The notes under the pieces are model-generated. The model was not told the DNA's origin and did not search any database. It worked only from the letters and a program-made list of their open reading frames with translations. Positions 28,638 to 35,280 of a stretch of 64,000 nt of DNA are shown piece after piece. This DNA is from an uncultured Gemmatimonadales bacterium. Lineage in GTDB: Bacteria > Gemmatimonadota > Gemmatimonadetes > Gemmatimonadales > Gemmatimonadaceae. Location of the stretch: the NCBI GenBank assembly GCA_963850905.1, contig CAWKMU010000003.1:2144001-2208000 (forward strand). Reading direction: 5' to 3'. The position numbers and the translations under genes were made by a program. Numbering within the stretch: position 1 is the first letter of the stretch; each line of letters starts with the position of its first letter.

Positions 28638-31556
28638 TTGGCCCGTGTGAACCGGCCCCGCATGGTGGTCGCTCTGGCAGTACTCGCCGGCCTGCCTGTC
28701 GGCCTGTTCGCACAGGACACGGCGAACCGGGTCGCGCGCGCCATCGATCTTGCCGCAGAGCGCGCCGTCGCGAGCGACAGCGTATTGGCGGCCGCCAGCA
28801 AGTGGCGGGCGGCCTTGTTGCGCGATCCGGGCGACCGGTATGCGGCACTTGGTCTGGCAAGTCTCGCCCGACTGACGTCCGACACGACAGCCGACGCTGC
28901 CCTCACGCCACTCGCGGGCGGGTCGGATGCCGTCGCGCGTCGTGCCTCGCTGGACCGAGCCGGGTCGGCGGTGGCGGCGGGGCGAAGGGCGGCGGGGGAT
29001 AGCATGTATGCGCGCGCGGCTGCCGTCGCCTCGGCCGCGCATGATTCGATCGTCGAGGCCGAAGCGCAGTTCGGACGCGCTGATGTGGCTTTTGCGCAGT
29101 TCGCGTTTGCGGCGGCGCGGCCGTTCATTCGCCCCGCCGATTCGGTTCGACCCCCGTTGGATGCGATCCTGGCGGCCACGAGTGCCTGTGTGCAGGCGGC
29201 GCTTCGTCCGTCCGATTCGGCGCTGCGCGCCGCCACCCTCCAGGCGGAGCGCACCGGCAATGCACGACTGGCCGCTCGGTGCCTCGCTCCACTACCCTCG
29301 TTCTTGTTTGGTCAGGGCGAGGAGGATGCGTCGGACCACGCGGGCGCAGAGGTCATCGCTCGCTTGCGTCGCGTGCGGGATCGCGATGCGCTCGGCGTTG
29401 CCCTCATGTTCCAGTGTTACCGGCGCCTCACGCTGCTGGATTACGACGCGAGCGCGGCGTACTGCGGGGACGCGGTCTCCGAAGGTCGAACGTCGCACTC
29501 GCCGTATACTGTCGGATGGGCTGAGCTCAACCTGGGAGCACTCAGCCGCCTCCTCGGAGACGCAGCGGCGGCGCGCGCCCACAATGCGCGAGCGCGTGCG
29601 GCGCTGCTCGCGATCAACGACCAGCATGGATTGGGTATTCTCCGTCGGAACAATGCTGATCTGGCGCTCGACGCCGGTGACACGGCCGCCGCTCGAGCCG
29701 CTGCATTGGAGGCGCTCCACGCTGCGTCGGCGGGCGCGGACGCGGGCGGTGCCTGGAGGAGGCTCGCGGATGTTGCGCTCCGGGAAAACCGATTCGCAGA
29801 AGCGAAACGGGACATCGACAGCGGCGTGGCCGCGGCAGTCCGCGGGCACGCTGAAGTCTTCGTTCCGGCGGCCAAACTTGCGTATGGAACGGTACTGCTC
29901 CGCGAGGGACGTCCCGAAGACGCGTTGACCTGGCTGATCCCGTCAGTGTACGACACCGGTCAACACGTCGCTCGATATCTGATCGAAGAACAGCGCGTCG
30001 AAGCGTTGCTTGCGCTCGGACGACGGAAGGAAGCTCTGACTGAGATGGAGCGTACCACCGATGAGCTCGAGCGCTGGCGAGCGACGCTGAGCGACCGAGA
30101 GCTGCGCGTCCTGGCGTTCCAAACCAGGCCACTGTTTGGCGGACCCAGCCCGGCGATCGCAGCGGTAGTTGCCTCAGCCGTAGCTCAAGGGCAGAGTGAC
30201 CGGGCGTTCGCGCTCGCCGAGCGACGACGGGCTCGCGACCTCGAGGACCAGCGCCGCCGGGCGGCAGTCCTGGGCGGCGGTACGCAGGGCAGCATCGCCC
30301 CGTCGCGCCTTACGTCCCTGACGTCGCTCGCTGCACTCGGTCGCGAGATCCCTGACGACAGCACCGCCGTCATCGAGTACGTCACCGGTCCGGTTGGCGC
30401 GCCCACGACTGTTTTCGTGGTCACACGGCGTTCCACCTCTGCCCGGATCATCGCGCCGGTGGACTCGCTGGCGGATGACATCAGTCTGTTCGATGAACTC
30501 GTCGACCAACGCCAGGACTCGCGCGCCGTCGCACGCACGGTCGGCTCGCGGGTGCTCGGACCGGTCGTGCGCGCCCTGTCGCCGGCGATCGAGAGACTTG
30601 TGATCGTGCCCGACGGCCTGTTGTACCGCATCCCGTTCCCAGCGCTGCGACTGAGCAACGGCACGTACGCGGTGGACCGGTATGCCATCAGCTCCGTACC
30701 GTCGGCAACCGTCGTCGCCGATCTCTGGTCGCATCCGCCCGCAGTTCGTCACGGGCCTGCACGTGTGCTCGCGTTCGGCAATGCAATCCCGGACCCGGGT
30801 GCTGGCGGGACCGCGGAGCGCGGCACTGCCGATGTGAGCGACGACGAGCGCTCAGCAACGCCGGCGGGGTCACCGCTCGTGGAAGTGTTGTCCGAGAGTC
30901 CGTCGGTCGCGAGTAGCCTACCGCGTCTCGAGTGGTCGGGTGACGAAGCGCGCATGGTGGCCGCCTTCGGACGGGAGTCGGTCGTTCGAGTCGGCCGCGA
31001 TGCAACGCCAGCCGCTCTAAAGGAAGCGCCGCTCGACTCGTTCTCCGTAGTGCACTTTGCGACGCATGCTGTGGTCGACGAGCAGGTGCCGGCGCGCAGC
31101 GCGCTGTTGCTGTCGGCCGACACACGCAGCAACGGGATTGTCGATGCTGGTTCGCTGGAGGGGCGACACATAGCGGCCACCCTCGTGGTGTTGTCGGCCT
31201 GCCGGACGGCTCGCGGCGCGTTGGTCGAAGGCGAAGGGGTGCGCGGGCTGGCGAATCCGTTTCTCGGGGCGGGCGCGCACGCCGTGTTGGCCACCCAGTG
31301 GGCGATCGGCGACCGGTCCGCGGTCCCCATGGTCTACGCGATCTATCGGGGGATCGCGGCCGGCCTTCCGGTGGCCGAGGCGCTGCGCCGCGCGGAAGCC
31401 GAGGCCGTTCGCCGCGGCGCGCCGGTGCGGGAATGGGCTGCCTTCGCGCTGATCGGCGACCCGCTTGCACGCGTGGCGCTCGAGACGCCGGCTCCCGATG
31501 CGATCCCCAGTTGGGTCCGTGTGCTCGCTACGGTTTCGGTACCGCGAGGTCGGTGA
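28638..31556 (+). CDS. Exported TPR-CHAT (caspase-like, clan CD) protease
   Basis: Signal peptide ..RPRMVVALAVLAGLPVGLFA|QD; Ala-rich TPR-like helices; AFALAERRRAR; LVIVPDGLLYRIPF; catalytic HFATH (H810) and VLSAC (C855); GEGVRGL..FLGAGA..ATQW; WAAF. Confidence 0.92.
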   Translation: MARVNRPRMVVALAVLAGLPVGLFAQDTANRVARAIDLAAERAVASDSVLAAASKWRAALLRDPGDRYAALGLASLARLTSDTTADAALTPLAGGSDAVARRASLDRAGSAVAAGRRAAGDSMYARAAAVASAAHDSIVEAEAQFGRADVAFAQFAFAAARPFIRPADSVRPPLDAILAATSACVQAALRPSDSALRAATLQAERTGNARLAARCLAPLPSFLFGQGEEDASDHAGAEVIARLRRVRDRDALGVALMFQCYRRLTLLDYDASAAYCGDAVSEGRTSHSPYTVGWAELNLGALSRLLGDAAAARAHNARARAALLAINDQHGLGILRRNNADLALDAGDTAAARAAALEALHAASAGADAGGAWRRLADVALRENRFAEAKRDIDSGVAAAVRGHAEVFVPAAKLAYGTVLLREGRPEDALTWLIPSVYDTGQHVARYLIEEQRVEALLALGRRKEALTEMERTTDELERWRATLSDRELRVLAFQTRPLFGGPSPAIAAVVASAVAQGQSDRAFALAERRRARDLEDQRRRAAVLGGGTQGSIAPSRLTSLTSLAALGREIPDDSTAVIEYVTGPVGAPTTVFVVTRRSTSARIIAPVDSLADDISLFDELVDQRQDSRAVARTVGSRVLGPVVRALSPAIERLVIVPDGLLYRIPFPALRLSNGTYAVDRYAISSVPSATVVADLWSHPPAVRHGPARVLAFGNAIPDPGAGGTAERGTADVSDDERSATPAGSPLVEVLSESPSVASSLPRLEWSGDEARMVAAFGRESVVRVGRDATPAALKEAPLDSFSVVHFATHAVVDEQVPARSALLLSADTRSNGIVDAGSLEGRHIAATLVVLSACRTARGALVEGEGVRGLANPFLGAGAHAVLATQWAIGDRSAVPMVYAIYRGIAAGLPVAEALRRAEAEAVRRGAPVREWAAFALIGDPLARVALETPAPDAIPSWVRVLATVSVPRGR

Positions 31557-32181
31557 ACGCTGACTGCCAGCGTACGCCGGCGGCCTCGCTCGTTGTCACT
31601 CGCCAGCGATATGTGCCTCCGACCGGCAGTGCCGGCCAGGGGAGCGTCGTGTCGGCTGTCCGTGAGCGGGTCACCACGAGGCCGGAGTCGTTCACGACCT
31701 CGAAGAGGTACGATGCAGCCCCCGGCGCCCGATGCCACACGAACAATGGTGTCGCACCCGGTGAGATTGTACCTACGGGCCCGATGACTGCGAGCACGCG
31801 CGTTCCGGTATCGGTCGCGACCCCTCGTTCGGCGTCGTTCGGCCCCGTCGGTCGAAACTGACGGGCTGATTGTCGCGCGATCGTCGGCACGGCGATCGCG
31901 ACGACGATCACCGCAGCGATCGCCAGAGCGGCCCACAGGCCGCGACGTTGCGGTTGCAGCGACTCGCCAGCCCGCGACGTCGCCAGTAACAAATCCAGTT
32001 CTCGCCGGCAGGTGGCGCACGACAGCGCGTGATCGAACACCGCGAGCCGTGCCGCCTCGGGGCCGCGGCCGAGCGCCGCGTCCGCCAGTTGGTCCGCGTC
32101 GGGGTGCGGCGTGTCCGGGGCATTGGCGGCGTGGGCGCCGTAGAGTGCACGGAGCCGGTTGTCCGAGAAGTCGCTCGTCAC
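31528..32181 (-). CDS. Membrane-anchored zf-HC2 anti-sigma factor with extracytoplasmic beta-sandwich domain (217 aa)
   Basis: GTG start overlaps the sigma stop (GTGA); HALSCATC zinc motif; TM GLWAALAIAAVIVVAIAVPTIA; C-domain FVWHRAPGAASYLFEV..YRWRVT. Confidence 0.82.
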   Translation of the reverse strand: MTSDFSDNRLRALYGAHAANAPDTPHPDADQLADAALGRGPEAARLAVFDHALSCATCRRELDLLLATSRAGESLQPQRRGLWAALAIAAVIVVAIAVPTIARQSARQFRPTGPNDAERGVATDTGTRVLAVIGPVGTISPGATPLFVWHRAPGAASYLFEVVNDSGLVVTRSRTADTTLPWPALPVGGTYRWRVTTSEAAGVRWQSAFTDLAVPKP

Positions 32182-32726
32182 GCCGTCCCTCCGGGGCCGA
32201 TCCCGCGCCGCCGCAACTCTTCCCGCAAATCGTCCAGACCTCGATACAGCAGGTTCCGTGTCTTGGCCTCCGACCATCGCAGGTGCTGGGCGATCTCTTC
32301 TCTCGTGTATCCGGAAAGGTACATGCGCACCGGCACGCGGCGGCTTTCCGCGAGGGTGCGGATGGCCGCGGCGACCGCGTGGGCTTCCTCCGAGCGCTCG
32401 AGGCGCTCGGCCGGATCCGCGCTTTCAGGCGCTGCTGGATCGTCCGCGATCTCCTCGAGCGATGCCTGGTTGCGGCGAGCGCGTCGCTCGCGGATCACAT
32501 CGAGCGCCGCTGATATCCCGGCGCGATAGATGTACGAGCTGCCGAGACCGGAGATCGCCTCCGCCTCGCCGTGCGCGCGCCAAAGTCGAAGGCGGAGGTT
32601 CTGCAACACCTCCGCGATCTCATCCTCCGGGACCCCACGCTGCAGCGCGATATGCCGCAGCATGCCGGCGAAGCGTGCGAGGAGAGCATCGAGGGCAGAA
32701 GATATCGGGTCCGTAGCGTCAGGCAC
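32178..32726 (-). CDS. ECF sigma-70 family sigma factor (182 aa)
   Basis: Region 2 EVLQNLRLRLWR..SYIYRAGISAALDVIR; region 4 YLSGYTREEIAQHLRWSEAKTRNLLYRGLDDLR. Confidence 0.9.
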   Translation of the reverse strand: MPDATDPISSALDALLARFAGMLRHIALQRGVPEDEIAEVLQNLRLRLWRAHGEAEAISGLGSSYIYRAGISAALDVIRERRARRNQASLEEIADDPAAPESADPAERLERSEEAHAVAAAIRTLAESRRVPVRMYLSGYTREEIAQHLRWSEAKTRNLLYRGLDDLREELRRRGIGPGGTA

Positions 32727-33141: not shown

Positions 33142-35280
33142 GTGTTGCGCAAATCCCGGGTTGCCATTCTGATTGCGCTTGCCGGCCTGTGCGCATGCGG
33201 CAAGAGCTCGACGGCCCCCGCTTCCAACGGTGGGGGCGGGGGCGGCGGTGGAGGAAGCGGAGGGAGCACCACCACCGCCACCTACATCGGAACGGTCGCG
33301 AGCGCCGTTGCCACCGGCTCATTCGCCGCGACCTTCACGACGCCAGCATCGAGCAAGGTCGCCTCCGAGCGGTCCGTGGAGGTCGGCCCATCCGGTCATC
33401 GCATTCGGCTCCGGAGCGGACCGGGTGCGTCCATCACGATCACGCTGCTCAACGGGCAGACGTTGACGCTCACCGGATCGTTGAGCGGTTCTTCCTTCAC
33501 ACTGAACGATAGCAACGGCGATTCGTGTTCGGGCACCCTCGCCAACGTCCTGGCCGCAACTTGCACATTTGCCATCGACCCCGGAGCGTCGATTGGGCTG
33601 ATTGGCGCGCTGCAAATCGAAGGGGCGACCGCGGGCCTCACCACCTATTGCGGACTCGTGCACATCCCTGGCGTCGTCTCGCCCTATGCATCGATGCTGC
33701 TCGGCGTGTCCGGATCGCAGTCGTTCGTCGCCACCATCGGCATCCCCAATAACATTCCCATCTTCTACGCGGGGAGCGTGACCGGCTCGAGCTTCCGGGA
33801 CACGTCGGTCACGCCCCACTTCACTGATTTCTATTCTGGCACTCTCTCGGCGACGACGGCCAGCGGTTTCGACAGCGTGACGACAGCCACCTTGGGGGAC
33901 TTCAGCGCGACGACGCCATGCACACTGACCGCGGCGTCGATCAGTGCCACGAGTGCGACGTTCACCGCCTCCGCCGGTTCGGCGCCGGCGCCGGTCAAGC
34001 TGATCGTTTCGCCGAACACGCTGGGCCCGATGACTGCCGTCGTGCCATCGGGGGCGACCTGGCTCAAAGCCAGCACTGCCTACGATACGCTGATCCTGGC
34101 CCCGGCGTCTCAGCCCACGAGCGGCACGTTCAACACGGCTGTGACGCTGTATCCACAGTTTGCGAGCTCACCTTTGACCGTCAACGTCTCCTATACGGTG
34201 ACGGGCGGCACCGGCGGTGGCGGATCGACGGGGCTCTGGCTCGGCAACAGCGACGGGCAGCTGCTCGAGTTTACGGCCCTGACCGGCCCGACGATTCTAC
34301 CGAGCATCTCCACCGGCACCGGCGGCGCGACCGGCGTTGGCTATCTCGCCGCCGACCAGCAAGGGAACCTGTGGATGTCGTCGGCATTCCGTGGCACGGT
34401 CGACAAACTTCCGCCCTCGAACTTCTCGAGCGGGAGCCCGAGCCTCGATATCCAGATTCCACGGGCGCCCTCCGGCCCGTCGCCCCAGCCCGTGGGGATC
34501 GCATTCGATCACAACGGAACGCTCTGGGTGGCCGACAGCGCGAACAGCGGATGGTTCTACAGCTATACGCAGGCGCAGCTCTCCATGGCGACCCCCACGG
34601 CCAACCCGTTCACGCTCACGGGTGTCGTCACTGGTCCCACCTCGCTCGGTCACCTGAAGCTCGCAGCGGTCGCGTTCGACGCCAACGGCAATCTCTGGCT
34701 GTCCGACGAGGCGTCGTCGCTTGTGTTCGAGGTCCTTGCCGGCCAACTCAATGGCTCGAATGTCGACTTGCAGGCCTTTGGGTTCATTGCCGTCGGTGGC
34801 AACGGCGGCAGTCAGCCGCAATCGATGGCATTCGACGCGCAGGGGAACCTCTGGGTAAGCTTCCTCGGGTTCTCGGCCGGCGGGGCGGTGTACGAGTATG
34901 CGAAGTCAGACTTGAACAACATCCAGCACGATCAGAGTCCATCGCCCCTGGCCGAAGTGCAGATCAACGGGGTGGCCGACTCCATCACTTCGATCGCGTT
35001 CGATCAGGCGGGGAACCTGTGGCTCGTGGAGTCGGCCAAGGCCAACGTCACGACGGCGTTGGCGATGGTGCCGAAGGCGAGTATCGCGGCCGCCGGCACC
35101 TACCAGGTCACGCCGACCGTCACGTACGCCGCGACCACGAACGCGCAACTTCCGACGTCGATAGCGTTCGGTCCGCCGCCGTCGAATCTGCCAATGTACA
35201 GCGTGCCAGGTCGGGGGCCAACGCCTCCAAACGCCTCGCCACTCGCTTCTACGCGGACGATGGTCAGGCGCCGCCCTTAG
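33142..35280 (+). CDS. Large lipoprotein with Ser/Thr-rich beta domains and a C-terminal NHL/Vgb-like beta-propeller (712 aa)
   Basis: SD GAGGT then GTG 33142; VLRKSRVAILIALAGLCAC lipobox; poly-Gly linker; repeats ADQQGNLW, AFDHNGTLW, AFDANGNLW, AFDAQGNLW, AFDQAGNLW. Confidence 0.82.
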   Translation: MLRKSRVAILIALAGLCACGKSSTAPASNGGGGGGGGGSGGSTTTATYIGTVASAVATGSFAATFTTPASSKVASERSVEVGPSGHRIRLRSGPGASITITLLNGQTLTLTGSLSGSSFTLNDSNGDSCSGTLANVLAATCTFAIDPGASIGLIGALQIEGATAGLTTYCGLVHIPGVVSPYASMLLGVSGSQSFVATIGIPNNIPIFYAGSVTGSSFRDTSVTPHFTDFYSGTLSATTASGFDSVTTATLGDFSATTPCTLTAASISATSATFTASAGSAPAPVKLIVSPNTLGPMTAVVPSGATWLKASTAYDTLILAPASQPTSGTFNTAVTLYPQFASSPLTVNVSYTVTGGTGGGGSTGLWLGNSDGQLLEFTALTGPTILPSISTGTGGATGVGYLAADQQGNLWMSSAFRGTVDKLPPSNFSSGSPSLDIQIPRAPSGPSPQPVGIAFDHNGTLWVADSANSGWFYSYTQAQLSMATPTANPFTLTGVVTGPTSLGHLKLAAVAFDANGNLWLSDEASSLVFEVLAGQLNGSNVDLQAFGFIAVGGNGGSQPQSMAFDAQGNLWVSFLGFSAGGAVYEYAKSDLNNIQHDQSPSPLAEVQINGVADSITSIAFDQAGNLWLVESAKANVTTALAMVPKASIAAAGTYQVTPTVTYAATTNAQLPTSIAFGPPPSNLPMYSVPGRGPTPPNASPLASTRTMVRRRP

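Follow-up and report, generated by a model that had tools for sequence, protein, structure and literature searches.

The stretch of DNA analysed here (the window) comprises 64,000 nucleotides of an uncultured Gemmatimonadales bacterium (GCA_963850905.1, contig CAWKMU010000003.1), and its subject is a compact sigma-factor module. A gene at 28638..31556 (+) encodes a TPR-CHAT caspase-like protease, of 972 amino acids (aa) from the TTG at 28638 or 964 aa from the ATG at 28662. Facing it at 31528..32181 (-) is the gene for a single-pass anti-sigma factor of 217 aa, identified from the open reading frame (ORF) list, hydropathy and a structure model; the 3' ends of these convergent genes overlap by 29 bases. 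Upstream of the anti-sigma gene lies that of a sigma factor of the extracytoplasmic function (ECF) type, 182 aa long (32178..32726 (-); TIGR02937 at 62.1 bits for a cut-off of 42.9, and Pfam Sigma70_r4_2). The sigma stop codon overlaps the anti-sigma start, and on that basis the adjacent ECF sigma would be the partner of the anti-sigma factor. The same genome carries a second complete module at C3:1090220-1094560, in which the layout is repeated. The feature of most concern here is an arginine just outside the membrane in the anti-sigma factor, Arg119, at which the neighbouring protease may cut.

The anti-sigma factor begins with a part that is helical in the model and holds the zinc-binding anti-sigma motif His26...His51-x3-Cys55-x2-Cys58 (32008..32106 (-)). 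This we take to be a ZAS motif; the protein matches no Pfam or NCBIfam family, and HxxxCxxC is found in 108 of 127 homologues. The transmembrane helix (aa 84-102; 31876..31932 (-)) is the best hydrophobic 19-mer, with a hydropathy of 2.67. An outer domain of FN3/Ig-like fold (aa 128-214; 31540..31800 (-)) is indicated by the model, by FN3 matches in Foldseek and by tandem repeats in large proteins. Between helix and outer domain the model leaves a disordered stretch, aa 107-117; here stands DAER/G (aa 116-120; 31822..31836 (-)), with the predicted site-1 cut after Arg119 (codon 31825-31827).

Conservation of this site was followed through 132 loci: two in this genome, the 60 best-scoring other places of one search, 60 regions and four short loci, and six loci from metagenomes. 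One fetched stretch could hold two loci, and weaker-scoring places lie outside the set. These yielded 127 full anti-sigmas (126 distinct) and 99 near-complete CHAT domains in the fetched stretch, the CHAT gene being on the opposite strand in 70, on the same strand in 26 and fused with the anti-sigma gene in three; the six loci of the metagenome scan included none with a complete CHAT domain. A hold-out of 60 regions from other families added 62 anti-sigmas, a few near-duplicates and one doubtful second match among them. As the sequences are related, homologue counts are not independent events. An anti-sigma homologue is present in 66 of 301 genomes sampled from Gemmatimonadota, and the source names of the CHAT homologues point to the same phylum.

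Arginine occupies the aligned column of Arg119 in 22/22 database homologues and in 125/126 distinct anti-sigmas, second only to Trp149; the exception has an Arg one residue off. In the hold-out it is kept in 61/62, with Gly next in 42. The residue that follows, among the 126, is Gly in 86, Ala in 13 and Ser in 8 (107 in all), Asp in 7 and Glu in 6. The fourth residue back from the bond, P4, is Asp or Glu in 64/126, and P2 and P3 are variable; AERG as such is therefore not conserved in the anti-sigmas, only the Arg and the small residue after it, although the closest anti-sigmas have [DE]RG in 14/14. The initial annotation had proposed alignment of homologous anti-sigmas as a check for a conserved juxtamembrane Arg-Gly, and the Arg passes that check. 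The sole hold-out anti-sigma lacking the Arg, L281:5044-5655 (+), has a short linker and no CHAT match within ~5 kb on either side; its neighbours are a sensor kinase and response regulator pair and a hydrolase, with no sigma-like ORF seen alongside.

Aligners pull Arg together in gappy regions, so a linker-window test independent of the alignment column was added: RG was observed in 88/126 linkers, as against 20.1 in shuffles. One way to account for such an arginine is to make it a structural or membrane-contact residue, with no relation to proteolysis or to CHAT. The linker is Arg-rich enough to suit this, as shuffles alone put some Arg in the window in 104.6/126. The residue nevertheless lies at no fixed distance from the conserved Trp, anywhere from 19 to 34 residues away, and in a disordered stretch; it keeps a consistent sequence context, the acidic P4 above all; and homologous repeats do without it. 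A profile search across all protein representatives brought up overwhelmingly FN3-like repeat proteins, and these served as the control: RG precedes only 13/1,722 homologous repeats in large proteins (any Arg, 654/1,722), so the FN3-like fold does not need a linker RG. All six Arg codons are used at the site. A purely structural role is very improbable.

The Pfam CHAT match of the protease (PF12770) spans aa 630-941 at 186.7 bits (cut-off 24, E 8e-55), and the protein model has a confidence (pLDDT) of 89.7, with DdvA, separase and Csx29 as best Foldseek matches; DdvA is the top structural match of the model and also the top sequence match of the CHAT profile. The catalytic-dyad positions, which follow core strands 3 and 4 and were placed by aligning the protein to DdvA and Csx29 at their dyad motifs, are His810 (31065..31067 (+)) and Cys855 (31200..31202 (+)); both residues are intact, and His and Cys are invariant in 120/120 close CHAT homologues. 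A signal-peptide-like hydrophobic stretch (28662..28712 (+); 12-mer hydropathy 2.63) recurs at the N-terminus of 91/110 full-length CHAT homologues, and by hydropathy the window protein has no C-terminal membrane anchor. From this N-terminal stretch the protease is likely to be exported.

Specificity for Arg would come from an acidic S1 pocket. In clan CD, P1 specificity is set by helix 1 or by loops L1, L4 and L5 (PMC4357240). Following the S1 layout given there, the invariant Glu770 of helix 1 (30945..30947 (+)) is a candidate S1 residue, and the invariant Asp892 of L5 (31311..31313 (+)), four residues after the invariant Trp888, a second; the model suggests that together they form an Arg-binding pocket. 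These two residues, and the example of HetF, make proteolysis after Arg by the window CHAT a plausible expectation. HetF of Anabaena PCC 7120, a CHAT protease, cuts PatU3 at Arg117/Ser118; the cut is lost when the Arg is changed, but not when its neighbours are changed one at a time (PMC9457339). The likeness lies in a cut after Arg and before a small residue, with dispensable neighbours, as P2-P4 vary here. HetF differs in that it is bound to the membrane and its periplasmic TPRs are separate, and PatU3 has been described as regulating division and differentiation rather than as a membrane anti-sigma factor.

The perspective favoured here, reasonably probable in the light of sequence and analogy, is that the adjacent exported TPR-CHAT is the site-1 protease of the membrane anti-sigma factor and that a cut at Arg119/Gly120 frees the ECF sigma. 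An envelope signal would activate the exported protease through its TPR part; the protease would cut Arg119/Gly120, and the FN3-like outer domain would be shed; a site-2 protease would then cut the remaining stub, cytoplasmic proteolysis would follow, and the freed sigma would transcribe nearby genes for exported proteins. The order resembles DegS-RseA-RseP, with a site-1 cut outside, a site-2 cut in the membrane and sigma release (as summarised in PMC10028731); unlike DegS, the site-1 enzyme would belong to the cysteine proteases of clan CD and serve a single anti-sigma only. If this is right, clan CD cysteine proteases join the site-1 proteases of bacterial envelope signalling.

A related arrangement is DdvA-DdvS of Myxococcus xanthus (PDB 8rot, 8rw5), which likewise has a zinc-binding single-pass anti-sigma, a cognate ECF sigma and an outer TPR-CHAT; for the site-1 step its authors put forward a cut by CHAT in the juxtamembrane linker, with RseP acting next (PMC11506125). 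In the window the protease has a gene of its own on the opposite strand, and outside the membrane the anti-sigma carries no more than a small FN3-like domain and a linker with a conserved Arg. Because the protease is a separate protein, the window module is not a DdvA, though it is similar to the proposed DdvA model; a one-chain TPR-CHAT/anti-sigma fusion occurs in 3/127 related loci, and not in the window. Those fusions, L066:2758-6801 (-), L075:2723-7048 (-) and L086:5276-9523 (+), run anti-sigma, FN3-like, TPR and CHAT in one frame of ~1,350-1,440 aa, a DdvA-like form; in all three the catalytic His is replaced by Tyr and the linker Arg is kept. The DdvA paper leaves open whether CHAT could act as the site-1 protease of a membrane anti-sigma, a question that it calls testable only with the signal in hand. 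The two-protein version predicts the cut to the residue, Arg119/Gly120; its substrate is small and soluble, and its enzyme is a protein apart with an intact dyad, so that a test in vitro is possible.

Other relatives resemble the module in part. The Craspase system (type III-E) Csx29-Csx30-CASP-sigma (PMC10028731) also has a TPR-CHAT that cuts an inhibitor of an ECF-like sigma in a flexible loop; it differs in being cytoplasmic, activated by Cas7-11 and RNA, and in cutting after Met or Leu, and Csx30 is no membrane zinc anti-sigma. Csx29, as aligned, carries Ser where the window protease has Asp892. At the window locus the protease has a hydrophobic N-terminus and, for neighbours, a membrane anti-sigma and a lipoprotein-like gene, so it does not look like a Craspase, the search for cas genes covering this locus. 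As to the control of a CBASS/CRISPR island that marks the DdvA type, neither the ORF list of the window, read by eye, nor a scan of seven ORFs showed a CRISPR or CBASS gene beside the module; all that PADLOC returned was a weak match of BovA to the CHAT domain. Separase (PMC10317155) and gingipain R (PMC4357240) are, like CHAT, of clan CD and take Arg at P1. Separase reads (S/D/E)xExxR and has autocleavage sites and inhibitory loops, and the acidic P4 of the anti-sigma sites is shared with its consensus; gingipain R carries an inhibitory Arg loop that is cut first. Neither has a role in sigma-factor signalling. In the openly accessible literature searched, including passages of PMC8195603, no description of the two-protein module or of this Arg site was found, subscription papers being outside that scope; in the part covered of the ECF classification supplement (PMC7826278), CHAT is named only for ECF54, and a later group may cover the module.

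Several observations weigh against a site-1 cut by the adjacent enzyme. The residue after the Arg is Asp, Glu, Thr, Pro or Gln in 19/126 anti-sigmas. Some CHAT proteases, the Craspases, cut after Met or Leu (PMC11506125), so CHAT membership alone leaves cut specificity open; the S1 placement of Glu770 and Asp892 follows strand-helix order in the model, not superposition, and export was called from hydropathy alone. M50-family matches are present in the genome, and the strongest, RseP-type, at G000:C3:2649684-2650752 (+), is split over two frames, which suggests an assembly error or a broken gene. Finally, the Arg is kept beside all eight CHATs that lack the catalytic His (of 98 paired, three fusions included), and beside a ninth in the hold-out, as well as in 8/9 anti-sigmas for which ~5 kb on each of the two sides holds no CHAT. 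The linker Arg is thus not strictly tied to an adjacent active enzyme, and it may dock, or be cut in trans.

A docking residue would sit in the acidic S1 pocket and tether TPR-CHAT as a sensor, a general envelope protease doing the cutting; the signal would then act through release or shape change of the tethered protein. Glu770 and Asp892 are retained in the His-less CHATs, as docking would have it, and the DdvA site is described as resting and incomplete, with cleavage by DdvA a proposal (PMC11506125). The catalytic His is retained, however, in 90/98 paired CHATs, and Gly, Ala or Ser follows the Arg in most anti-sigmas, as for a cut bond. Where the CHAT lacks its His, the Arg of the partner precedes Glu or Asp in 4/8, which suggests that these pairs are a derived, separate case. 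Docking is unlikely as the role of Arg119. There is, in addition, a second class of locus (19 same-strand loci of L054-L092 that have no sigma close to that of the window, and L293, L295 and L296) with the CHAT gene downstream on the same strand; its members have almost no L1 loop, and in several the catalytic His has given way to Tyr, Asn or Arg. These same-strand CHATs are possibly pseudo-protease sensors.

A cut in trans supposes that some other Arg-specific envelope protease, a distant CHAT or an unrelated enzyme, acts at Arg119, the adjacent CHAT having another substrate or being itself an output of the sigma factor. The anti-sigmas that keep their Arg with no CHAT nearby are what this would predict, and the genome has four CHAT matches (the window gene, the second module, a full-length gene and a fragment), of which the full-length one has no adjacent anti-sigma homologue. 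Linkage speaks for the neighbour: convergent pairs mostly abut or overlap, fused forms exist, and the paralogous module of the genome has the same layout. Cleavage by a different enzyme is improbable, and the adjacent TPR-CHAT remains the better candidate for the site-1 protease.

The protease itself has a second possible involvement of arginine. The initial annotation started from a tetrapeptide, AERG, common to the two proteins, at 30813..30824 (+) (aa 726-729) in CHAT and 31822-31833 (-) (aa 117-120) in the anti-sigma, and both positions are correct; the latter copy lies 17 residues beyond the best hydrophobic 19-mer. The codons do differ, as it said, for the first pair and for Glu, Arg and Gly alike, and the CHAT copy does lie in an insertion inside the domain, a loop of 48 aa (714-761; 30777..30920 (+)) within the Pfam match, much of it at low model confidence. 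This variable loop, which joins the first core strand to the helix of Glu770, was delimited by secondary-structure order and low pLDDT, and corresponds by the naming of PMC4357240 to what would be clan CD loop L1.

The caution that a four-letter match can arise by chance was justified. The two proteins share 13 tetrapeptides, for 11.2 +/- 3.4 in 10,000 shuffles, and over the whole proteins 73% of shuffles give a shared one with Arg third; RG dipeptides number seven in the CHAT protein and three in the anti-sigma. A restriction made post hoc, a 50-aa loop against a 35-aa linker, gives a shared Arg-containing tetrapeptide in 1.9% of shuffles. The identity, at chance level over whole proteins, was rejected as evidence, and AERG was rejected as a conserved motif, being present in 3/120 CHAT loops with P2-P4 varying among anti-sigmas. 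The four letters by themselves are no evidence, the interest lying in the testable cut site, and AERG in the protease loop is likely to be mostly a chance, lineage-specific match.

Comparison of CHATs, the other alignment proposed at the outset, went against the loop copy. AERG is absent from the six closest orthologues, in which loop [DE]RG is found in 0/6 and [DE]R[AML]A in 6/6; the latter aligns with another loop motif of the window protein, DDERSA (aa 735-740; 30840..30857 (+)), which makes it a likelier candidate than AERG, by sequence, for a decoy or self-cut site. The ERS within it (aa 737-739), and that at aa 76 of the lipoprotein, had been noticed and called weaker; both are there, and in the loop ERS holds the better-conserved Arg, while the lipoprotein copy is not conserved in the orthologue or in three more distant homologues.

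Across homologues the loop is 8 to 69 aa long (120 close CHAT homologues). Those 120 loops contain RG in 50 cases (37.6 expected) and R[GS] in 86 (50.9 expected); in a more diverse paired set the excess is smaller, R[GS] in 38/77 loops for 32.5 expected. The query CHAT clade is marked by a Trp directly after the loop, and a quick tree without bootstrap was used solely to show clustering of the acidic-P2 label. Loop [DE]RG occurs in 10/24 other members of that clade as against 3/95 outside, with four at most in control windows. The motif usual in loops beyond this clade is E-[TVL]-[FY]-R-[SGD]-A-F, which stands nine residues ahead of the end of the loop (68/120); it fits a [DE]xxR/small consensus but may be a structural amphipathic helix. 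Scored with a weight matrix built on anti-sigma sites, the loops exceed their own shuffles, with controls as high in 3/60, 0/60 and 5/60, and 0/100 in the hold-out. Mean scores are -1.25 for loop sites as against 5.0 for anti-sigma sites, and in the window -0.52 for AERG, -0.76 for ERS and 1.74 for its own anti-sigma site. The linker between TPR and CHAT (30240-30300 in the window) starts with [LM]R[GAQS] in many homologues, substrate-like and in excess of shuffles; the window protein lacks this Arg.

As an addition to site-1 cleavage, then, an Arg of L1 might act as a decoy, or be a point of self-cleavage, and so keep the active site blocked until the signal comes. The loop lies where the substrate-binding elements of clan CD are found, and gingipain R offers an example, its inhibitory-loop Arg occupying S1 and being also the first cut (PMC4357240); in SAVED-CHAT, gating loops cover the active site (bioRxiv 2023.06.23.546230). 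Loop Arg sites resemble the anti-sigma consensus beyond shuffles and most control windows; [DE]RG is concentrated in the query clade, the closest anti-sigmas have it throughout, and in the paralogous pair of the second module DRG is common to loop and linker. Several things tell against it: the loop holds no Arg at all in 29/135 paired CHATs whose dyad is intact, loop sites score far below true anti-sigma sites, the commonest loop motif, E-x-[FY]-R-[SGD]-A-F, is perhaps a plain amphipathic helix, and another linker of the same proteins also exceeds its shuffles. Partner matching, considered below, was not replicated. Such a loop function is doubtful; if it exists in this protein, Arg738 of ERS is the likelier residue, with Arg728 of AERG second and dispensable, and a decoy or self-cut role for AERG in particular is quite improbable. 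The proposal that R/G is both the site-1 cut and an autoprocessing or pseudosubstrate site is supported for the anti-sigma half, where the Arg is conserved and mostly precedes Gly, and is weak for the CHAT loop. Securin inhibits by lacking the P1 Arg, unlike the window loop, in which both motifs keep it.

A stronger form of the idea supposes a built-in decoy in which the L1 Arg imitates the cut site of its own partner, plugs the active site or is cut first, and co-varies with the partner so that paralogous switches stay apart; the site types named for that separation are ER in the window pair and DR in the paralogue. Seven statistics were computed on 77 pairs, and two were high: identity at P2 (20 vs 11.7) and at P2 plus P1' (6 vs 1.3). 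Overall identity and BLOSUM similarity between loop and linker were not raised in these pairs. After clustering, both high statistics stayed mostly above expectation, with median p from 0.005 to 0.31. A predefined test on 42 new pairs (near-duplicates retained, 29 clusters; 20/62 hold-out rows excluded for a missing CHAT, a loop under nine residues, no Arg or doubtful pairing) gave 6 vs 3.9 and 2 vs 0.44, with clustered p of 0.40 and 0.25, and so did not replicate the effect; the direction is the same, so a weak effect is possible. Two new pairs share four consecutive residues (p 0.035 in an unplanned test). In one CHAT clade, L259 and L262 have anti-sigma ER/GG and loops that end in ERGG or QRGG, and L039, L146, L148, L154, L161 and L169 have LR or MR anti-sigma sites and no Arg at the loop end; the L259/L262 pattern hints at partner matching, from one or two events. 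A partner-matched decoy is decidedly unlikely; if true, it would bring self-control of the kind known from securin or gingipain into a sigma-factor switch of bacteria.

Beyond the module, a divergent gene at 33142..35280 (+) encodes a lipoprotein-like product with a C-terminal part of beta-propeller type (Pfam Reg_prop and NHL), and is a candidate target gene of the sigma factor. A homologue is present in only three other of the 132 loci, so the gene is no constant part of the module. A search for a shared promoter motif, BLASTN of the spacer between the sigma and lipoprotein-like genes, returned only short matches to paralogous regions and one match of 121 bases, which adjoins the sigma start in the closest orthologous locus. 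A paralogue of the lipoprotein-like gene (G000:C3:1151028-1153151 (-), 42% identity) lies ~57 kb from the second module; no upstream motif shared by the two was found.

The full-length TPR-CHAT gene with no anti-sigma homologue alongside (G000:C3:801591-804647 (-)) lies downstream of a lipoprotein-like gene, and its product has a C-terminal hydrophobic tail and AERT in the L1 loop. The CHAT fragment (G000:C3:2118488-2119069 (+)) has 193 codons with the His and Cys motifs, lacks the N-terminal part and lies ~55 kb before the window module. In three related loci, L035:6640-8697, L046:1013-6063 and L083:2760-6439, the CHAT gene is broken by a stop or a change of frame.

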